Shown: piece by piece, positions 15,513-37,549 of the stretch
Layout of the letters: each line of letters starts with the position of its first letter
Numbering within the stretch: position 1 is the first letter of the stretch
Assembly: GCA_965221955.1 (NCBI GenBank)
Contig: CBDCTA010000022.1
Span: 373,734 to 437,733, forward strand
Direction of reading: 5' to 3'
DNA: 64,000 bases
Source: Gammaproteobacteria bacterium
GTDB lineage: Bacteria; Pseudomonadota; Gammaproteobacteria; UBA4575
Translations under genes and position numbers: made by a program
The notes under the pieces: model-generated
The model's input: only the letters and a program-made list of their open reading frames with translations
Databases searched by the model: none
What the model was told of the DNA's origin: nothing

Positions 15513-15526
15513 TTGATTTATATCAA
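15513..15526. promoter_or_regulatory. FNR box (perfect), bidirectional between cls and a cytochrome c gene
   Basis: TTGATTTATATCAA, with -10-like TATAGT (15488-15493, minus) and TACTCT (15548-15553, plus) at class II spacing. Confidence 0.88.
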
Positions 15527-22014: not shown

Positions 22015-22761
22015 ATGCAAACCGCAACCGCTATACCAGTTCAAAAGACATATGCATCAGCACATATGTACACACAAAATAATTGCCAACATTGCCATAA
22101 AACTGATGTTTGCTTTGCGCATTCATTAGAGGGTGAAGAGCTTGAAGCTTTTAATTCAATTGTTAAGCATTCTAAGAAATTAAATCGAGGGGATTATCTC
22201 TATCAAGCAGGAGATCAATTCAATTCGATTTATGTCATTCGCAGTGGTTCTATTAAAACCTTCATTGATGACGAAGAAGGTCGTGAACAAATATTAGGAT
22301 TTTCGATTCAGGGCGACGTAGTCGCATTAGACGGTACCACCTCAACGGTATATCCCACTTCCGCGCAAGCGCTAGAAACTACCTATGTATGTGAAATTCC
22401 TTTTGCACGCTACATGGAGTTAGCGGCTGAGATTCCTGCTCTTTATCAACACTTGTTGACACAAATGACTCATCAAATTCGAGATGATGAAGAACATACA
22501 TTGTTGATTGGTACAAAAAGCGCCGAACAACGTCTTGCGACCTTATTAGTCAATTTTTCCAATCGCTATGCTGAAAGAGGGTTTTCAAAGACGGAGTTTA
22601 ATCTACATATGTCACGTCGTGATATTGGCAACTACCTCTCAGCTGCCATGGAAACTGTTAGCCGATTATTTTCTCGCTTACAAGCGAATGGCCTTATTGA
22701 AGTACATGGCAAGCTCGTGGCCATTAAAGACCTAGAAGGATTGCAAAGATACGCATCATAG
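22015..22761 (+). CDS. fnr: FNR-type Crp/Fnr regulator with all four [4Fe-4S] cysteines
   Basis: CQHC-x5-C at the N-terminus, internal YVCEIPF, AEQRLA, and recognition helix ETVSR. Confidence 0.88.
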   Translation: MQTATAIPVQKTYASAHMYTQNNCQHCHKTDVCFAHSLEGEELEAFNSIVKHSKKLNRGDYLYQAGDQFNSIYVIRSGSIKTFIDDEEGREQILGFSIQGDVVALDGTTSTVYPTSAQALETTYVCEIPFARYMELAAEIPALYQHLLTQMTHQIRDDEEHTLLIGTKSAEQRLATLLVNFSNRYAERGFSKTEFNLHMSRRDIGNYLSAAMETVSRLFSRLQANGLIEVHGKLVAIKDLEGLQRYAS

Positions 22762-27993: not shown

Positions 27994-28833
27994 ATGTCTA
28001 TTAAAGATATTTTAGTGATATGTGATGCAGGTGAAGCAAACGACTATCGTGTTGAAACCGCGATGTTATTGGCAAAAGTTTATCAGGCACATGTAACTGG
28101 CATACATTTTGTGCCCTTTCCTGTTATTCCAGTCTATGGTGGCGGCTATCCTGATGCTATTCCTTATCTTTCAACTGATCAAATGAAGCAGTCTGAAGAA
28201 ACAGCTAATGTACTATGTGAGAAATTTAAGAAGAAATCTGCTGAACTAGAAATCCCTAGCGAATGGAAAGTGATAGATGGCGTAGATGTTCGATATATTA
28301 TTGACAACGCGCGTTATGCCGATATCGTAATTGTTCCACAAGGTTATTCAAAATATGGGGAAGATTACACTCAGAAGATAGACGATTATTTATCTATTCA
28401 CTTGGGCCGGCCGCTATTAGTCGTTCCAGATCTAAAAAAAGTTTTCACTTTGCCTAGAAGAGTGGTGATTGCATGGAATGAAAGCCACGAAGCTGCAAGG
28501 GCGGTGCACGATGCGATGCCATTACTACAATATGCAGAAGAAATCCAAGTAATAAGTGTTGCATCAAGCGCAAAGAAAGAAAAACAGCTCATGATTTATG
28601 ATAATGATTTACGCAAACATCTATCTCATCATGGTATTGAAGTTGAGGTTGCATCCTTGGATCCAGCATCTAAAGGTACAGGAAAAACAATCTTAGAGGG
28701 CGCAATAGAGTATAATGCTGATTTAATCGTGATGGGTGCTTATGGGCATACACGTCTCAAAGAAATAGTCTTAGGCGGAGCGACGAAGTATTTATTAAAC
28801 AATACAACTATTCCTTTATTTTTATCGCATTAA
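27994..28833 (+). CDS. Tandem-domain universal stress protein (copy A)
   Basis: MSIKDILV, ARYADIVI, GRPLLVVP, IAWNESHEAARAVHDAMPLL and DLIVMGAYGHTRLKEIVLGGAT. Confidence 0.92.
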   Translation: MSIKDILVICDAGEANDYRVETAMLLAKVYQAHVTGIHFVPFPVIPVYGGGYPDAIPYLSTDQMKQSEETANVLCEKFKKKSAELEIPSEWKVIDGVDVRYIIDNARYADIVIVPQGYSKYGEDYTQKIDDYLSIHLGRPLLVVPDLKKVFTLPRRVVIAWNESHEAARAVHDAMPLLQYAEEIQVISVASSAKKEKQLMIYDNDLRKHLSHHGIEVEVASLDPASKGTGKTILEGAIEYNADLIVMGAYGHTRLKEIVLGGATKYLLNNTTIPLFLSH

Positions 28834-28874: not shown

Positions 28875-29714
28875 ATGTCAATTAAAGACATTTTGGTAGT
28901 TTGTGATACGGGTGAAGCAAATGATTTTCGGGTTGAAACCACTTTGTTATTTGCAAAAGTTTTCGATGCACATGTAACCGGAATTCATTTAACACCTTAT
29001 TCGATCCCATCTGAATCTAGCAGTGGTTTTAATAAAGTAATTGATTACTTATCGAGCGAAAAACTTGAAACAGCTAAAGAGACTGCTGAGACAATCAAAG
29101 CTAATTTTGAAAGTAAAGCATCAGAATTAGAAGTTCCTTATGAATGGAATTTTACAGATGGTATCGACAAACAATTTATCATTGACCATGCACGATACGC
29201 AGACTTTGTTGTATTACCACAAGGTTATTCTAGTATTGCAGAGGAACACCCGCATAGAATAGATGATTACTTATCGATCTATATGGGGCGTCCGACAGTC
29301 ATAATTCCCGATATTAAGAAAGTATTTAACTTACCTAAAAGAATTATCATTGCTTGGGATGAAAGCAAAGAAGCTGCGCGTGCGGTGCATGATGCAATGC
29401 CTTTTTTAGAATATGCAGAAAATGTGCAAATTGTGAGTGTTTCAGGTACTCCTAAAGAGGAAAAGAGCAATATCATTTACAGCGATGATTTACGTAAGCA
29501 TTTATCTCATCATGGTATTAGCACTGATGTAATCCTTGCCGATGAACTAGAAGAAGGTATAGGTAAAACGATTTTGCAAAGCGGGTTTGAATATGATGCT
29601 GATTTAATCGTGATGGGAGCCTATGGCGAAACTCGGCTTGAGGAAATCGTATTAGGTGGAGTTACCAGATATCTGCTGAATAACACAACCATACCTCTTT
29701 TTTTATCGCATTAA
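28875..29714 (+). CDS. Tandem-domain universal stress protein (copy B, duplicate of A)
   Basis: Same length (279 aa) and colinear with copy A. Identical C-terminus LLNNTTIPLFLSH. Confidence 0.92.
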   Translation: MSIKDILVVCDTGEANDFRVETTLLFAKVFDAHVTGIHLTPYSIPSESSSGFNKVIDYLSSEKLETAKETAETIKANFESKASELEVPYEWNFTDGIDKQFIIDHARYADFVVLPQGYSSIAEEHPHRIDDYLSIYMGRPTVIIPDIKKVFNLPKRIIIAWDESKEAARAVHDAMPFLEYAENVQIVSVSGTPKEEKSNIIYSDDLRKHLSHHGISTDVILADELEEGIGKTILQSGFEYDADLIVMGAYGETRLEEIVLGGVTRYLLNNTTIPLFLSH

Positions 29715-31240: not shown

Positions 31241-31483
31241 TTACAGTCCAACTAATTCGGCATGCATGTTATGTTGTTTCGCAAGTTTTACAAATTCTAA
31301 AGACTTAATTACTTCAGGATCATAAACAATGATCATTAAATGAGGTTTATCATCGTGAAAGGATGCAGAATAAACACCATTCTCATGTAATAGTACATCA
31401 CGAAAATCTTCTAAATTGCCATGAGACAATTCTTCGTCTATATGCAACATCACATCAACAGTTGTAGCTTCCTTATCGTTCAT
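31241..31483 (-). CDS. 80-aa protein of unknown function (HMA/ferredoxin-like pattern without CxxC)
   Basis: AGGAG RBS, DVMLHIDE...GV...HLMIIVYDP...HAELVGL, and a perfect FNR box upstream. Confidence 0.75.
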   Translation of the reverse strand: MNDKEATTVDVMLHIDEELSHGNLEDFRDVLLHENGVYSASFHDDKPHLMIIVYDPEVIKSLEFVKLAKQHNMHAELVGL

Positions 31484-31546: not shown

Positions 31547-31560
31547 TTGATATATATCAA
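31547..31560. promoter_or_regulatory. FNR box (perfect)
   Basis: TTGATATATATCAA, 63 nt upstream of the 31483 start. Confidence 0.88.
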
Positions 31561-31605: not shown

Positions 31606-31932
31606 TTATTTGTATTTACAAAAAACATCATGTAACGATGTAACGATATGAGACAAATCTTTATCCACGAGTTTATAGTAGATAGTTTGTGATTCACGGC
31701 GTGTTTCAACTAAATTGTGCTGTCTTAATACTGCAAGATGCTGGGATAAGGCAGACTGACTAAGATCTACAAATTCATTAATCTCACTTACCGTCATCTC
31801 GTTCTTAACCAACATACATAAAATCATCAATCTTGCTTCATGAGCAATAATTTTTAGCGTACGAGCTACGTTTTCACGTTGCTCTAACATATCGTCTGCA
31901 GATTCTTCTCTTAGTTTTGCTTTAACAGGCAT
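31606..31932 (-). CDS. ArsR-family persulfide-sensing repressor (SqrR/BigR/YgaV type)
   Basis: AHEARLMILCML (helix-2 Cys), SQSALSQHLAVLR, RRESQTIYY and C-terminal VFC (helix-5 Cys). Confidence 0.88.
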   Translation of the reverse strand: MPVKAKLREESADDMLEQRENVARTLKIIAHEARLMILCMLVKNEMTVSEINEFVDLSQSALSQHLAVLRQHNLVETRRESQTIYYKLVDKDLSHIVTSLHDVFCKYK

Positions 31933-31971
31933 AAATATTATCTAAGTACAGCATTAACTATAGTTATAGAT

Positions 31972-32017
31972 ATTAGATTTTACTAATTTAGCTTGCGCTA
32001 AATTAGTAAAATTTGAT
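31972..32017. promoter_or_regulatory. Candidate ArsR/SqrR operator array
   Basis: Perfect 16-bp inverted repeat ATTTTACTAATTTAGC-TTGC-GCTAAATTAGTAAAAT (31977-32012). Also readable as three abutting ATTA-N8-TAAT-like units at a 15-bp period. Confidence 0.7.
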
Positions 32018-32083
32018 ATACATATCCTATTATATAGCAAGCCTATATAAAAATAGATAGCTAAATACGAAAAATTGATTCAA

Positions 32084-32097
32084 GTGATTGAAATCAA
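32084..32097. promoter_or_regulatory. FNR box (1 mismatch) upstream of the dsrE2-like operon
   Basis: GTGATTGAAATCAA. Confidence 0.6.
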
Positions 32098-32168
32098 ACA
32101 GCTACATAAATATTCAAGTTTTAATGGACCGAAGCAACATTCAATTGGAGACAACCTAAACGATACAC

Positions 32169-32792
32169 ATGGATAGAGAAGTGAACACAGCAAGCCAATT
32201 AACTGGTAATAAATTTGAAACAGAAGAATTTAACCGCTTATTTGATGAACGCTTTGAGCAAAAAATGCATGAGCGTGAAATAAACAAAGTTCCAAGAATG
32301 GCACTCATTGCCACGAAAGGAACGTTAGATATGGCCTATCCACCTTTTATTCTTGCTTCAACTGCAGCAGCAATGGGTTGGGAAGTCTCTGTTTTTTTCA
32401 CATTCTATGGTCTCAATTTACTTAAAAAAGAAATCAATACAGAAGTATCACCTCTTGGTAATCCTGCAATGCCAATGAAAATGCCTTTCGGGCCAGAGTG
32501 GTTCAAAAACATTGATTGGGAAATTCCAAACATTGTAACCAGCAATATCCCAGGTTTTGAAAGATTAGCAACGTTACTGATGAAAAAAACTTTGTCATCA
32601 AAGGGCGTAGCGAGCCTAAGTGAATTACGAGAACTTGTTATTGAGGCCGAAGTTAAATTAGTTGCATGCCAAATGACTGTAGATTTATTTGGCTATCAAA
32701 AAGAAGATTTTATTAAGGAGATTTCAGATTGGGTTGGTGCTGCAACATTTTTACCTTATGCGCAAAAATCTGATATCTGTTTATTTATTTAA
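32169..32792 (+). CDS. DsrE2-like (DsrE/DsrF/DrsH family) sulfur relay protein
   Basis: ATKGTLDMAYPPFILASTAAAMG...FFTFYGL and a conserved Cys in LVACQMT. Confidence 0.87.
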   Translation: MDREVNTASQLTGNKFETEEFNRLFDERFEQKMHEREINKVPRMALIATKGTLDMAYPPFILASTAAAMGWEVSVFFTFYGLNLLKKEINTEVSPLGNPAMPMKMPFGPEWFKNIDWEIPNIVTSNIPGFERLATLLMKKTLSSKGVASLSELRELVIEAEVKLVACQMTVDLFGYQKEDFIKEISDWVGAATFLPYAQKSDICLFI

Positions 32793-32832
32793 AGGGACTG
32801 TTTAATTACTTGAAATTTTAAAAGGAAGAAGG

Positions 32833-34191
32833 ATGTTAAATAAAAAAATACTGATTGTACTAAGCCTATTTTTTGTGCCGATTATGGCTAATGCTACTAA
32901 CGGTTATTTTGCACACGGAACAGGTTTAATAAATAGAGCACTTGGTGGTGCTGGTGTTGCCTTCCCACAAGATGCAATGGCTGGAGCAACCAATCCCGCA
33001 GGTATGGCGTTTGTAGGTAATCGAATTGACATTGGTGCAGTATTGTTTAAGCCTGATCGTGAATATTCTGCAGGGCCGAGTTTAATTAACGGCAATATGG
33101 GAGCATTTACTATCGGTCAAGGTACTGAAGAGAGTGGAGATGAAAATTTTATTATTCCAAGTTTTGGTATCAACTATATGCTTACCGAGCGTGATGCCAT
33201 TGGTTTATCGGTTTATGGAAATGGTGGACTGAATACAACGTATGATGGAGGTAGTGCATTTTTCTTCAACCCAATGGCAATGGGCGTAGTTAATCCTCCT
33301 GGCACATTTGGTGATGGCACGGCTGGTGTAGATCTTTTTCAAATCTTTTTTAATTTTTCCTATGCACGCCAATTTTCGGATAATTTTTCAGTAGGAATTA
33401 GTCCAATCTTTGCGGTACAAGGATTTCGAGCCAATGGATTGGGTGCATTTGCTGGGTTTACAAAAACATTTAACGAAAGTGGTTTTACTACGGTACCAGA
33501 TAATTTAACCAGTAATGGAACAAACTACTCATACGGTGGTGGAGTGCAAGTTGGAGCTCTTGCAAGAGATGTCATTGGCACTGCAGATTTTGGAATTTCA
33601 TACCGTTCAAAGATGTATATGGATGAATTCGATGATTATTCGGATTTATTTGCTGAAGATGGTGACTTTGATATTCCTTCCACATTATGGGCAGGTTTTG
33701 CAGTCGACTTAACTGAAAAAATAACTTTAGTCGCAGATTATCAAAAGATTTGGTATGAAGATGTCGAAGCGGTAAGTAATGATATCCAAAACTTAGAGGC
33801 TTGTCCTATTGCTATGTTGGGCGGCACAGATGTTGAAAGCTGCTTGGGTGGCGACAATGGTGCAGGGTTTGGTTGGGATAACATTGATGTCATCAAAGTA
33901 GGTCTACAATGGCAATCCCACCCTAATGTCACTATGCGGTTTGGTTATAGCCATTCTGATCAGCCCATTGATGATGATCAAGTGCTGTTTAACATATTGG
34001 CACCTGGAGTGATTGAAGATCACATTACCATTGGTGCGACAATTGAAACCAAAATGGGCGAGATTAATTTAGAAGCCATGCATGCCTTAAGTGAATCTGT
34101 GAAAGGGCGTAGTGCTTTTGATCCTACACAAGAAATTCGTCTTAAGATGAATCAGTTTGAACTAGGTATTGGTTGGTCAAAAGAATTTTAG
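32833..34191 (+). CDS. FadL/TodX-family outer-membrane channel for hydrophobic solutes
   Basis: Signal peptide, TNGYFAHG...ALGGAGVA...NPAGM hatch motif, beta-strand pattern and C-terminal Phe. Confidence 0.87.
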   Translation: MLNKKILIVLSLFFVPIMANATNGYFAHGTGLINRALGGAGVAFPQDAMAGATNPAGMAFVGNRIDIGAVLFKPDREYSAGPSLINGNMGAFTIGQGTEESGDENFIIPSFGINYMLTERDAIGLSVYGNGGLNTTYDGGSAFFFNPMAMGVVNPPGTFGDGTAGVDLFQIFFNFSYARQFSDNFSVGISPIFAVQGFRANGLGAFAGFTKTFNESGFTTVPDNLTSNGTNYSYGGGVQVGALARDVIGTADFGISYRSKMYMDEFDDYSDLFAEDGDFDIPSTLWAGFAVDLTEKITLVADYQKIWYEDVEAVSNDIQNLEACPIAMLGGTDVESCLGGDNGAGFGWDNIDVIKVGLQWQSHPNVTMRFGYSHSDQPIDDDQVLFNILAPGVIEDHITIGATIETKMGEINLEAMHALSESVKGRSAFDPTQEIRLKMNQFELGIGWSKEF

Positions 34192-34210
34192 ATCCCGCTG
34201 GAGTTATTGT

Positions 34211-34441
34211 ATGGAGCAAAAAATATTTGAGCTGGATACATCAGGGCTTAATTGCCCATTGCCAGTATTAAAGCTAAGAAAAATTTTAAAGACAATGGAT
34301 TCAGGTCAAGAAGTAAAAGTGATTGCCACAGACCCAGGGTCTGTTAAAGACTTTGCGTCATTTTGTAATCAGACAGGAGATCAATTAATAGAATCTAAAG
34401 AAGAAAATGGAAAATATATTTATAAAGTAAAAAAGAAATAA
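34211..34441 (+). CDS. tusA: TusA-family sulfur carrier
   Basis: Start set to ATG 34211 (GGAG RBS). LDTSGLNCPLP and ATDPGSVKDF motifs. Confidence 0.9.
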   Translation: MEQKIFELDTSGLNCPLPVLKLRKILKTMDSGQEVKVIATDPGSVKDFASFCNQTGDQLIESKEENGKYIYKVKKK

Positions 34442-34454
34442 TCTAGATAATCTT

Positions 34455-34970
34455 ATGTTTAAGAATTTATTTATATCACTCACATTGTTGATAATTTTAT
34501 TTTTATCGGTTGCACAAGCAGAGTCAGTCCTCATGTCACCCGAATGGGGGCAGTTAGCCTGTGAGGCATGGAATGAAGATACAATTCTTACTATTAAACT
34601 CGTGGAATCTGGCTGGGTAGAAAATGATTTAAATAGAGGCTACAAGGCCATTACGTTATATCGATCAGATTGCCCAAAGAGTAAAAGGGCTCAATTAAAG
34701 ATCAGTTTAGTAAATGAAAAAGTTGAATGCACATATGGCGGTGGAGTTATCGAGAAAACAGTAGATAAAAAAGTTGATTACATTATGCATGCGAATACGC
34801 AACGTTGGATCGAAATGGGTAAAGGCGAGTACGGTCCTATGAAAGCTATGATGCTGCGTAGATTAAAGTTTAAAGGTCCAAAAATGGAAGCCATGGGTAA
34901 CATGGGACCATTTAAAAATTTTTTATTACTTGCGGGCTCAGTTCCAAGCGATGCATCTAGCTGTCCATAA
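34455..34970 (+). CDS. Periplasmic SCP2 (sterol carrier)-like protein
   Basis: Signal peptide ending AQA. SPEW...CEAWN, W..MGKGEYGPMKAMMLRRLKFKGPKMEAM SCP2-like pattern, and four Cys. Confidence 0.75.
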   Translation: MFKNLFISLTLLIILFLSVAQAESVLMSPEWGQLACEAWNEDTILTIKLVESGWVENDLNRGYKAITLYRSDCPKSKRAQLKISLVNEKVECTYGGGVIEKTVDKKVDYIMHANTQRWIEMGKGEYGPMKAMMLRRLKFKGPKMEAMGNMGPFKNFLLLAGSVPSDASSCP

Positions 34971-35826: not shown

Positions 35827-36690
35827 CTAACTACGCATGGGTTCTACATGCACTACCACATCATCAATCGCAAATTTTTCATAAAGTTCTTCTTCGATAA
35901 GATCCGCGACCTTATGAGACTCCTCTGTCGACATGTTAGCTCTTACTGTGACTACAACATCAGCAAAAGTTTCTTGGCCAATATTGCGTGAACGTAGTCT
36001 TTCAATTTTTATGACATCGTCAATTTGTTCAATAGCTTCTACTATTTTTGCTTGATCGACTGCGGCTTCATCAACCAAAATTGGTATGCTTTTTCGAAAT
36101 AACTGGAATGCAAGGTAAAACACTAGGCCCGAGACAAATACAGCAAAAATAAAATCAAAAATAGGATAGCCGTGTATAGCTAATTGCCAACCACAGATGA
36201 CCCCTATCGTAACGAGTACATCGCTAAAAGTATGTTTTGCATCTGCCTTTAATAAATCTGAATTTAATCGTTTAGCTTGAATATTTTCCCAACTAGATAT
36301 CAAAACATTCACAATCAATACGCCGAACATAACAATAAGCCCCCAACGACTTGGTAATATTGGATTACCAATGCGCTCAAATGCACGTATCACTACTTCG
36401 ATAGCGATAACACTAAGAAGTGTGGCTAATACAAAAACAGCTAAGGTTTCAAATTTTCTGTGCCCATAAGGATGGTTTTGATCAGGAGGAGAAGCAGACA
36501 CCCTAGATACAATGTATGCGAATACATTATTAAAGACATCTGTAAGAGAATGTAACGCATCACTAAGGATTGCACTAGATCCCGTATGAATACCAACTAC
36601 AGTTTTCGCAATCAATACAGCAGTATTGGCTAAACCTTCAAGAATAAGAACAACGCGAACTTTGCGGTCTTGTTCATTTGTTCTATTCAT
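35827..36690 (-). CDS. Cation diffusion facilitator (FieF-like)
   Basis: SDALHSLTD, HPYGHRKFE, ADAKHTFSD and C-terminal VVHVEP. Confidence 0.92.
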   Translation of the reverse strand: MNRTNEQDRKVRVVLILEGLANTAVLIAKTVVGIHTGSSAILSDALHSLTDVFNNVFAYIVSRVSASPPDQNHPYGHRKFETLAVFVLATLLSVIAIEVVIRAFERIGNPILPSRWGLIVMFGVLIVNVLISSWENIQAKRLNSDLLKADAKHTFSDVLVTIGVICGWQLAIHGYPIFDFIFAVFVSGLVFYLAFQLFRKSIPILVDEAAVDQAKIVEAIEQIDDVIKIERLRSRNIGQETFADVVVTVRANMSTEESHKVADLIEEELYEKFAIDDVVVHVEPMRS

Positions 36691-37483
36691 ATTTCCTTAA
36701 ATATACGCTCCAGTAGACAATTGCAACTAATAATCCTCCACCTACAATATTGCCAAGCGTAACAGGAATAAGGTTAGACAAAAAATCCATCAAGCTAATA
36801 CCGCCACCACTAATTAACATACCTAATGGAATAAAATACATATTCGCCACGGAGTGCTCAAAGCCTAATGCTACGAATGCAGATATTGGGAAAATAATTG
36901 CTAATATTTTCCCAGCTACATGACGAGCAGAAAAACATAACCAAACTGCCAAACAAACTAATACATTACACAAAATTCCTCTTATGAATGCTTGCAATGG
37001 ATCAAGATTAACTTTTGCAATTGCAATTTCAAGTGCGGTTTCTGAAACTGCACCATCACCAAAAGACAGAGTGCCAGACCAAAATACTAATGCAGCCATA
37101 CCTACGGCACCGCTTAAGTTAGCAAAATATACAAGCCCCCAGTTTCTTAATAATTGTAAGGTAGATACTTTACGATCTGCCCATGCCATGACAATGAGAT
37201 TGTTTCCTGTAAATAATTCTGCACCACCGACTACTACCAGTATTAAGCCAAGTGAAAATGCAACACCGCCTAATAGTCGTGCTGAGCCTAACCCCATAAA
37301 TTGATTGGTCATGACCAAAGTAAAAAACATTGCGCCATAGGCAATGAATGCTCCAGCTAGCAACCCAAGCATAAGGGTTGGCATAGTAGGTAAAGCGGCT
37401 TTTTTTACCCCAACCTTTTCAACCAACTCCGCCATTTTAGCGGGCGCATAGGCATCAAAATCCTGTTCTGACAAAATTAACAA
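36683..37483 (-). CDS. Formate/nitrite (FNT) family channel
   Basis: FSLGLILVVVGGAELFTGN, GILCNVLVCLAVW, FVALGFEHSVANM and TLGNIVGG. Confidence 0.92.
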   Translation of the reverse strand: MLILSEQDFDAYAPAKMAELVEKVGVKKAALPTMPTLMLGLLAGAFIAYGAMFFTLVMTNQFMGLGSARLLGGVAFSLGLILVVVGGAELFTGNNLIVMAWADRKVSTLQLLRNWGLVYFANLSGAVGMAALVFWSGTLSFGDGAVSETALEIAIAKVNLDPLQAFIRGILCNVLVCLAVWLCFSARHVAGKILAIIFPISAFVALGFEHSVANMYFIPLGMLISGGGISLMDFLSNLIPVTLGNIVGGGLLVAIVYWSVYLRKYE

Positions 37484-37535: not shown

Positions 37536-37549
37536 TTGATGAATATCAA
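37536..37549. promoter_or_regulatory. FNR box (perfect) upstream of the FNT-CDF-GATase operon
   Basis: TTGATGAATATCAA. Confidence 0.88.

Follow-up and report, generated by a model that had tools for sequence, protein, structure and literature searches.

A fadL-like and SCP2-like operon as a candidate envelope route for zero-valent sulfur in a gammaproteobacterial sulfur oxidizer

The route by which water-insoluble zero-valent sulfur passes through the outer membrane and periplasm and arrives at the cytoplasmic Dsr and sHdr enzymes is recognized as a gap in the microbial sulfur cycle. Among the closest described systems are the rhd-tusA-dsrE2 relay of Allochromatium vinosum and the sHdr-linked sets of TusA and DsrE proteins. 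Here we describe an operon of dsrE2, a fadL-like gene, tusA, and a gene for a secreted SCP2-like protein, divergent from an arsR gene, in a 64,000-nucleotide (nt) stretch from a gammaproteobacterium of the UBA4575 lineage (contig CBDCTA010000022.1 of assembly GCA_965221955.1, positions 373,734 to 437,733 of the forward strand; the whole stretch is called the window, and all positions are counted within it unless stated otherwise). The operon shares with the described sets the presence of DsrE2 and TusA, the invariant cysteines of both proteins, and a host that is a Dsr-type sulfur oxidizer. Unlike the rhd-tusA-dsrE2 relay, it contains no rhodanese, and an outer membrane barrel and a secreted protein are encoded between and after the relay genes.

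The accessible portion of PMC11094781 describes the pairing of DsrE2 with TusA, notes of DsrE2A that its function "remains unclear," and doubts its predicted membrane anchoring. FadL in sulfur bacteria is treated as a fatty acid transporter only in the portions available of PMC10487802 and PMC10092268. Full-text searches of the literature outside subscription journals, judged from listings and the openings of abstracts, turned up nothing that joins SCP2 or sterol carrier proteins with dsr, TusA, or sulfur globules and nothing that joins FadL with sulfur transport. In this operon, two known folds are found in a new use or as a new variant.

Associations of several independent kinds connect both envelope proteins of this operon with dissimilatory sulfur oxidation; for the SCP2-like family, we regard the connection as probable. 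Gene identities, folds, conservation, synteny, and the genome-level association with sulfur genes are observed here. The explanation that we put forward, with confidence slightly short of even, is that DsrE2, TusA, the FadL-like channel, and the SCP2-fold protein would traffic zero-valent sulfur between the cell exterior or deposits in the periplasm and its oxidation in the cytoplasm.

Gene content and predicted folds

A preliminary description of the window had assigned five genes to this locus: a two-cysteine ArsR regulator and, divergent from it, DsrE2, a FadL-family outer membrane barrel, TusA, and an SCP2-like protein with a signal peptide. Open reading frames (ORFs) at the same positions, with their Pfam and NCBIfam matches, bear out all five identities, and the predicted structures of the two envelope proteins agree with the families to which they had been assigned.

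The last gene of the operon (34455..34970, plus strand) encodes the SCP2-like protein of 171 amino acids (aa), which matches PF02036 at 32.7 bits (cutoff, 21.3) over residues 90 to 153 only and matches no NCBIfam model. Read by eye from the sequence, its N terminus (MFKNLFISLTLLIILFLSVAQA/ES) appears to be a Sec signal peptide. Relatives number 286 in species genomes and 866 clusters of 90% identity in a metagenome protein set (E <= 0.001); of 1.84 billion, only 212 representatives at 50% identity are at E <= 1e-3 and 44 at 1e-30. An alignment of 45 members from several orders (A1) has a mean column identity of 58%, and a hydrophobic, signal-like N terminus occurs in all 23 rows displayed of the 45 aligned. 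Across the family, four cysteines are invariant (positions 36, 73, 92, and 170, the last being penultimate, as SCP-COOH), as are seven methionines, which are clustered (YGPMKAMM...GPKMEAMGNMGPF).

The AF2 model of this protein has a predicted local distance difference test score (pLDDT) of 88.7. In a Foldseek search with the model, the leading matches are 1wfr (2.9e-8) and 2cx7 (2e-7), with template modeling (TM) scores of 0.50 to 0.68, and every one of the 27 best matches listed, among them all 22 at E <= 0.001, is either an SCP2 fold or an SCP2-like domain from a protein of the alkylsulfatase type. These relatives comprise TT1886 and SCP2 of Thermus, eukaryotic SCP2, UbiJ, and the C-terminal domains of SdsA1, Pisa1, and YjcS; by sequence profile (A1), matches to the PDB are marginal, with a best E value of 0.0035. 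The protein resembles SCP2 carriers such as TT1886, eukaryotic SCP2, UbiJ, and the C-terminal domain of SdsA1 in scoring above the PF02036 cutoff and in having SCP2 folds as its best matches. Unlike the solved SCP2 proteins, it is secreted, possesses the invariant cysteines and methionines, and belongs to a small, tight family tied to sulfur oxidizers. Its methionine-rich C-terminal helices are only suggestive of a pocket for a lipophilic ligand. A C-terminal "swinging arm" cysteine, as in SoxY and DsrC, was considered and rejected: the mean pLDDT is 91 over residues 161 to 170, with a drop, to 66, confined to residue 171.

The second gene (32833..34191, plus strand) encodes a 452-aa outer membrane barrel of the FadL/TodX family (PF03349, 44.5 bits; cutoff, 29.7) with a signal-peptide-like N terminus and an N-terminal plug segment. 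Its AF2 model (pLDDT, 80.5; predicted TM score, 0.81) is most similar to TodX (3bs0, 1.4e-32) and FadL (1t16, 5.5e-27), followed by TbuX and CymD. A conserved NPA motif in the plug is important in this family, and the PDB titles of the FadL-family matches name NPA, N33A, and P34A mutants. The corresponding plug motif here is ATNPAG, in which N54 and P55 are invariant in 20 of 20 sequences. The protein is like TodX, FadL, TbuX, and CymD in its predicted barrel and N-terminal plug, its fold matches (E values of 1e-32 to 1e-24; TM scores of about 0.6 to 0.7), and its N-P(-A) motif. It differs from these solved channels in sequence, with 14 to 19% identity, and in belonging to a subfamily that is often encoded beside genes for DsrE2, TusA, or the SCP2-like protein or beside dsr genes.

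The relay genes stand on either side of the barrel gene. DsrE2 (32169..32792, plus strand; 207 aa) matches PF13686 at 164.9 bits and the equivalog model NF047629 at 218.7 bits (cutoff, 210); its start ATG is kept in orthologs, and its active-site Cys167, within ACQMT, does not vary among 13 copies from related modules. TusA (34211..34441, plus strand; 76 aa) matches PF01206 at 77.2 bits (cutoff, 28.6), and the cysteine of its CPLP (CPxP) motif is invariant in 10 of 10; against the E. coli-type equivalog NF001423, it scores 68.8, below the cutoff of 78. An alternative TTG start for tusA lies at 34169, but because only 79 codons separate the stops that bound the orthologous frame in locus L001, translation more likely starts from the ATG at 34211 than from this overlapping TTG. 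The four genes of the operon are separated by 13 to 40 bp.

The divergent gene (31606..31932, minus strand) encodes a two-cysteine ArsR/SmtB-family regulator of the BigR/SqrR/HlyU group (PF01022, 52.2 bits; NF033788, 92.7 bits against a cutoff of 55). Its best specific NCBIfam model is BigR, at 99.4 bits, and since this is below the cutoff of 155, the protein is classed as a relative of the BigR group and not as BigR itself. Residues C39 and C105 align with both cysteines of HlyU (4k2e, 5znx, and 3jth; 9e-22), and the next solved relatives, BigR (3pqj) and SqrR (6o8l), match residues 12 to 106. The regulator resembles the two-cysteine repressors BigR, SqrR, and HlyU in its ArsR fold family, in its aligned cysteines, and in lying divergent to sulfur genes across a spacer that contains a palindromic candidate operator, and it is unlike BigR in falling short of the equivalog cutoff.

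Downstream of arsR on the same strand is orf80 (31241..31483, minus strand; 80 aa), which has no Pfam or NCBIfam match and is possibly HMA-like: its nearest Atlas clusters are unnamed or labeled "putative HMA domain" at 0.92, which is a lead only; Atlas comparisons supplied no function. This gene is kept beside arsR and/or FadL genes in six related loci (L001 to L003, L010, L097, and L107).

Sulfur genes in the host, across genomes, and around the envelope genes

The host assembly comprises 2.69 Mb in 29 contigs and is 96.6% complete. Profile searches of this genome recovered dsrA at 631.8 bits with dsrB adjoining it, along with dsrO, dsrP, dsrN, and seven DsrC-like genes. FccB, exported by the twin-arginine translocation (TAT) system, and FccA adjoin a second DsrE2 that is 71.5% identical to that of the operon, and SoxB was not found by profile search in this 96.6% complete genome. 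Without SoxB but with FccAB and reverse Dsr (rDsr), the host must bring periplasmic zero-valent sulfur into the cytoplasm. Such an organism produces zero-valent sulfur outside the cytoplasm and oxidizes it inside, which is exactly the periplasm-to-cytoplasm gap that the preliminary description had named.

Among 401 genomes drawn evenly from the class of the window, 20 contain the SCP2-like gene and 124 contain dsrA. The latter is present in 16 of the 20 carriers of the SCP2-like gene versus 108 of the 381 noncarriers (Fisher P = 5e-6, a value that ignores kinship and is overstated because kin genomes are not independent). Three complete carriers without dsrA all possess SoxB and DsrE2 above the cutoffs, such that 19 of the 20 carriers are marked as sulfur oxidizers; the fourth dsrA-less carrier is a genome of 55% completeness, and dsrA is present in another genome of its genus. 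The FadL subfamily, scored in 400 genomes of this sample with a profile of 20 members (E <= 1e-50), occurs in 100 of them: in 74 of 124 dsrA-positive genomes (60%) versus 26 of 276 dsrA-negative genomes (9%), an odds ratio of 14 that is uncorrected for relatedness. Both genes are present in 11 sampled genomes, and in 6 of the 11, from four families, about 300 bp or less separates them.

For synteny, 80 of the 286 SCP2-like loci were kept, and neighboring genes were labeled with hidden Markov models built here, with Pfam for the model locus L077, and with Pfam and NCBIfam for other neighbors. Sulfur genes occur within two genes of the SCP2-like gene in 46 of the 80 loci. For 41 otherwise unclassified loci, 80 of 122 neighboring ORFs were compared with Pfam; loci L007, L038, L062, and L065 were excluded, as were frames of extreme length, whether short or long, and the SCP2 protein of L038 is nearly identical to that of L032, with the same layout of neighbors. 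A gene caller based on G+C content at third codon positions (GC3) missed the SCP2 gene in eight loci (L004, L016, L030, L037, L041, L043, L048, and L078). The co-occurrence with sulfur genes anticipated for both envelope families is thus found in the synteny of the SCP2-like gene and in the sampled genomes of both.

In 15 loci, a FadL-like gene lies directly upstream of the SCP2-like gene, accompanied in 12 by DsrE2 and in 10 by TusA. These loci come from Thiotrichales, uncultured beta- and gammaproteobacterial metagenome-assembled genomes (MAGs), Acidithiobacillales, Acidiferrobacteraceae, and Arenicellales. The order DsrE2-FadL-SCP2 is found in 12 loci from several orders whose SCP2-like proteins are 52 to 67% identical, and in a quick tree of the SCP2-like proteins, in which L062 is an artifactual long branch, the FadL-adjacent arrangement is spread over at least five places. 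In 24 other loci, from Sphaerotilaceae- and Comamonadaceae-type MAGs, the SCP2-like gene directly follows dsrC and/or a cysG-like gene, in most cases behind dsrO-dsrP-dsrN; in L077, it begins 3 bp after the cysG-like gene. Four such dsr-linked loci (L024, L029, L077, and L079) also contain a FadL gene of the same subfamily after a Rieske/CMD gene, and three of them contain TauE as well. The FadL protein of L077 is 38% identical to that of the window and matches PF03349 at 92.7 bits. Seven further loci have other sulfur genes within two genes of the SCP2-like gene, encoding DsrE, MFS-rhodanese and MBL-rhodanese fusions, a YeeE-like protein, an SQR-like protein in an HlyD-RND set, or a PhsA-like molybdoenzyme.

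The SQR-like gene occurs in two loci (L005:966-7041 and L023:151-5854) in the order HlyD-like, SQR-like flavoprotein, RND pump, SCP2-like, followed in L005 by OsmC. Its position inside an efflux pump set, beside the SCP2-like gene, hints at export of a product of sulfide oxidation.

Two additional genes were encountered in sulfur neighborhoods. Beside NapC-like, FccA, FccB, Tll0287-like, and second DsrE2 genes, the host genome encodes a 453-aa protein (G000:C4:71000-72362; L123:1001-2362, minus strand) with a signal- or anchor-like N terminus, an acidic stretch, an extremely methionine-rich region of low complexity (PMMNPNMM...), and a C-terminal DUF302, making it a second methionine-rich exported protein within a sulfur neighborhood. 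In five betaproteobacterial loci (L008, L053, L054, L059, and L076), tusA-dsrE2-fadL-SCP2 modules are followed immediately, on the opposite strand, by a gene of the DUF6866/Sfum_1244 family, and the copy in the host (C29:310511-311512) has the dsr cluster on one side and a tusA gene on the other; this is another uncharacterized family that tracks sulfur oxidation genes.

Control region and low-oxygen surroundings

The spacer between arsR and dsrE2 contains the large operator palindrome and the FNR box that had been proposed for it, the box having one mismatch and a position that is conserved in orthologs. The palindrome, a candidate ArsR operator (31977..32012), has perfect 16-nt arms around a 4-nt spacer and is present as a single copy in the window; another palindrome search there returns 28-nt arms at 86%. 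Its core, CTAATTTAG-N6-CTAAATTAG (31984-32007), consists of two 9-bp CTAAWTTAG half-sites, 6 bp apart, which are kept in three orthologous loci (L001 to L003). In the whole 2.69-Mb genome, this is the only exact pair of half-sites, whereas single half-sites number 67. The FNR-like box, GTGATtgaaATCAA (GTGATTGAAATCAA; 32084..32097), matches 9 of 10 specified bases and lies 72 nt upstream of the dsrE2 ATG, and the same three loci hold TTGATtca(g/a)GTCAA at this position. A second FNR-type box, TTGATATATATCAA (31547..31560), has no mismatches and lies 64 nt upstream of orf80. The palindrome itself is about 60 bp from the start of arsR, and the FNR-like box lies about 90 bp downstream of it.

Both BigR and SqrR are persulfide sensors. 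By the family resemblance of its ArsR alone, the operon may be under persulfide control. The likely reader of the FNR-type boxes is the Fnr transcription factor encoded at 22015..22761 (plus strand), which matches NF008365 at 240.9 bits (cutoff, 228) and also matches PF13545.

Boxes of this type are concentrated in the window, where 22 occur with at most one mismatch versus 7.55 +/- 2.42 in shuffled sequences. Moreover, the window makes up 2.4% of the length of the genome but has 9 of its 41 exact TTGAT-N4-ATCAA sites (at 15513, 24927, 27214, 31547, 33968, 37536, 49028, 51423, and 58830). Together with the Fnr gene, a FixL/FixJ-like pair, several Usp genes, and Hsp20, this enrichment makes the window resemble a low-oxygen stimulon island.

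Two features of these surroundings are syntenic with the operon in related genomes. Tandem paralogs of a 279-aa universal stress protein (27994-28833 and 28875-29714, plus strand) lie just upstream of an amino acid permease gene and the operon, an arrangement that is syntenic in L001, L003, L092, and L099. On the other side, a channel of the formate/nitrite transporter family (36683-37483, minus strand) scores 228 bits against the FocA model, whose cutoff is 290, and is preceded by an exact FNR box at 37536; its synteny with the operon is kept in close relatives. The formate/nitrite transporter family includes hydrosulfide channels.

Cargo, direction, and competing explanations

In the route that we propose, hydrophobic sulfur (S8 or long or organic polysulfanes) would cross or enter the outer membrane through the FadL-like barrel, and the SCP2-like protein would shield it in a methionine-lined pocket across the periplasm. 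An inner-membrane step, performed by a component outside the known genes of the operon, would then deliver the sulfur, and DsrE2 and TusA would take it over as persulfide for rDsr. Fnr would probably raise expression at low oxygen, and the divergent two-cysteine ArsR would probably hold the operon until modified by persulfide. The ligand, its direction of travel, any hand-over from one component to the next, and the two regulatory inputs are all inferred. A cargo of hydrophobic zero-valent sulfur and a single route made up of the four proteins form a coherent proposal, which we hold tentatively.

Import seems more likely than export. Import toward rDsr is favored because the SCP2-like gene is located inside dsr clusters and beside YeeE-like and MFS-rhodanese genes of importer type. 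The context of SQR-like and RND genes in L005 and L023 would also fit export.

A number of observations weigh against the proposed route. The preliminary description had suggested a single path from the outer membrane through the periplasm to the cytoplasm; the association of both envelope families with sulfur genes and genomes upholds part of that suggestion, but the two families do not depend on each other. Within dsrA-positive genomes, FadL is present in 10 of the 16 with the SCP2-like gene and in 64 of the 108 without it (odds ratio, 1.1), such that their presence is independent. The FadL subfamily is missing in 9 of the 20 carriers of the SCP2-like gene, and the SCP2-like gene is missing in 89 of the 100 carriers of FadL and in 108 of the 124 genomes with dsrA. 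Even close relatives of the host, one of the same genus (G150) and one of the same family (G317), have the FadL gene at 77% and 74% identity, respectively, without the SCP2-like gene. Moreover, the FadL profile was built only from sulfur-associated lineages, and the genome counts for both families are uncorrected for relatedness. No sulfur gene was recognized within two genes of the SCP2-like gene in 34 of the 80 loci, with neighbors annotated for all but 12; in one other locus, L069, DsrC-like ORFs lie farther away. In the quick tree, all 24 dsr-linked copies fall into a single clade (support, 100%) and therefore count as one evolutionary event. Additionally, the operon encodes no inner-membrane transporter or step, the four cysteines may be merely structural disulfides, and the geometry of the palindrome may make autoregulation of arsR at least as likely as repression of dsrE2.

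The settings of the FadL gene point in the same direction. Among the 23 closest FadL loci (best tblastn segments 38 to 85% identical, with 19 loci reaching at least 64%), only 6 have SCP2-like and/or TusA genes nearby, and 8 are linked to hemerythrin, mostly also with ccoN-ccoO(-ccoP) and/or DUF302. The remainder have only arsR and/or orf80 (two loci), are near dsrN/dsrP (two loci), or lie elsewhere (five loci). The hemerythrin-linked genes (L094, L095, L096, L098, L100, L103, L106, and L109; 64 to 79% identical) are mostly followed by DUF302, with a bacterial globin added in two loci; the DUF302 gene after FadL in L094 encodes no signal peptide. One MAG has FadL in both settings (L092 and L096), and the cco-hemerythrin cluster of the window's own genome (C29) is without FadL. 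The FadL gene is mobile between oxygen-related and sulfur-related neighborhoods, and both of these neighborhoods may share Fnr control.

These settings bear on a different account, in which the envelope proteins handle an ordinary hydrophobic organic compound (a fatty acid, a quinone or isoprenoid, or a membrane lipid) as an adaptation to low oxygen or sulfide stress, and DsrE2 and TusA merely belong to the same Fnr stimulon. The solved relatives of both proteins carry organic compounds, as is the case for TodX, FadL, TbuX, and CymD on the one hand and for sterol and fatty acid carriers, UbiJ, and the alkylsulfatase domains on the other. The density of FNR-type boxes in a window that also contains Fnr, FixL/FixJ-like, Usp, and Hsp20 genes would be expected from such an account, as would the hemerythrin and cbb3-type oxidase genes of the eight FadL loci and the independent occurrence of the two families among dsrA genomes. 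Left unexplained are the near-complete restriction of the SCP2-like gene to sulfur oxidizers (19 of 20 carriers), its presence inside dsr clusters just 3 bp behind a cysG-like gene, its recurrence beside five kinds of sulfur genes, and the roughly sixfold-higher frequency of the FadL subfamily in genomes with dsrA, and we regard an organic cargo as fairly unlikely. A role of the SCP2-like protein in sulfur metabolism through its side chains, with the cysteines carrying sulfur covalently or acting as a redox pair or the methionines binding a soft metal such as Cu(I) and with FadL as an unrelated neighbor, is distinctly improbable. It would account for the four invariant cysteines, one of them penultimate, for the seven clustered methionines, and for the carriers that lack the FadL subfamily (9 of 20); covalent cysteine carriers are the rule in sulfur trafficking, the cysteines of DsrE2 and TusA are invariant, and a second secreted methionine-rich protein is encoded beside FccAB in the host genome. 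The lipid carrier fold, however, has its C-terminal helices intact, the C-terminal cysteine lies in a confidently placed segment and not in a floppy arm, four cysteines in a secreted protein would most simply form two disulfides, and adjacency to FadL is kept across distant lineages.

A chance local rearrangement, in which dsrE2 and tusA form an ordinary cytoplasmic relay and the FadL and SCP2-like genes landed next to them without a shared function, is very improbable. The position of FadL is indeed labile: sister genomes have it in the cco cluster, the MAG with L092 and L096 has it in both settings, and here it is confined to the operon. The genome of the same genus (G150) is without the SCP2-like gene. 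Chance linkage does not account for the order DsrE2-FadL-SCP2 in 12 loci from several orders at 52 to 67% SCP2 identity, for the adjacency of the two genes in 6 of their 11 joint carriers in the sample, or for the 13- to 40-bp gaps between the genes in the window.

A transport route for zero-valent sulfur is the explanation that we retain from this comparison. Its broadest form, in which the SCP2-fold family would be the missing periplasmic carrier of zero-valent sulfur in rDsr and sHdr oxidizers and the FadL subfamily would be the outer membrane gate for insoluble sulfur, is possible but rather doubtful. The analysis names two concrete, small, expressible proteins whose distribution tracks sulfur oxidation, and the SCP2-like gene has culturable carriers in Thermithiobacillus tepidarius DSM 3134 (L051) and Stenotrophobium rhamnosiphilum (L063). 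If the proposal does not hold, the SCP2-like proteins would still constitute a new secreted SCP2 family of sulfur bacteria. If it is true, the operon would provide the first molecular route for elemental sulfur through the Gram-negative envelope, with a mechanism bearing on the turnover of sulfur globules, bioleaching, and the removal of sulfide.

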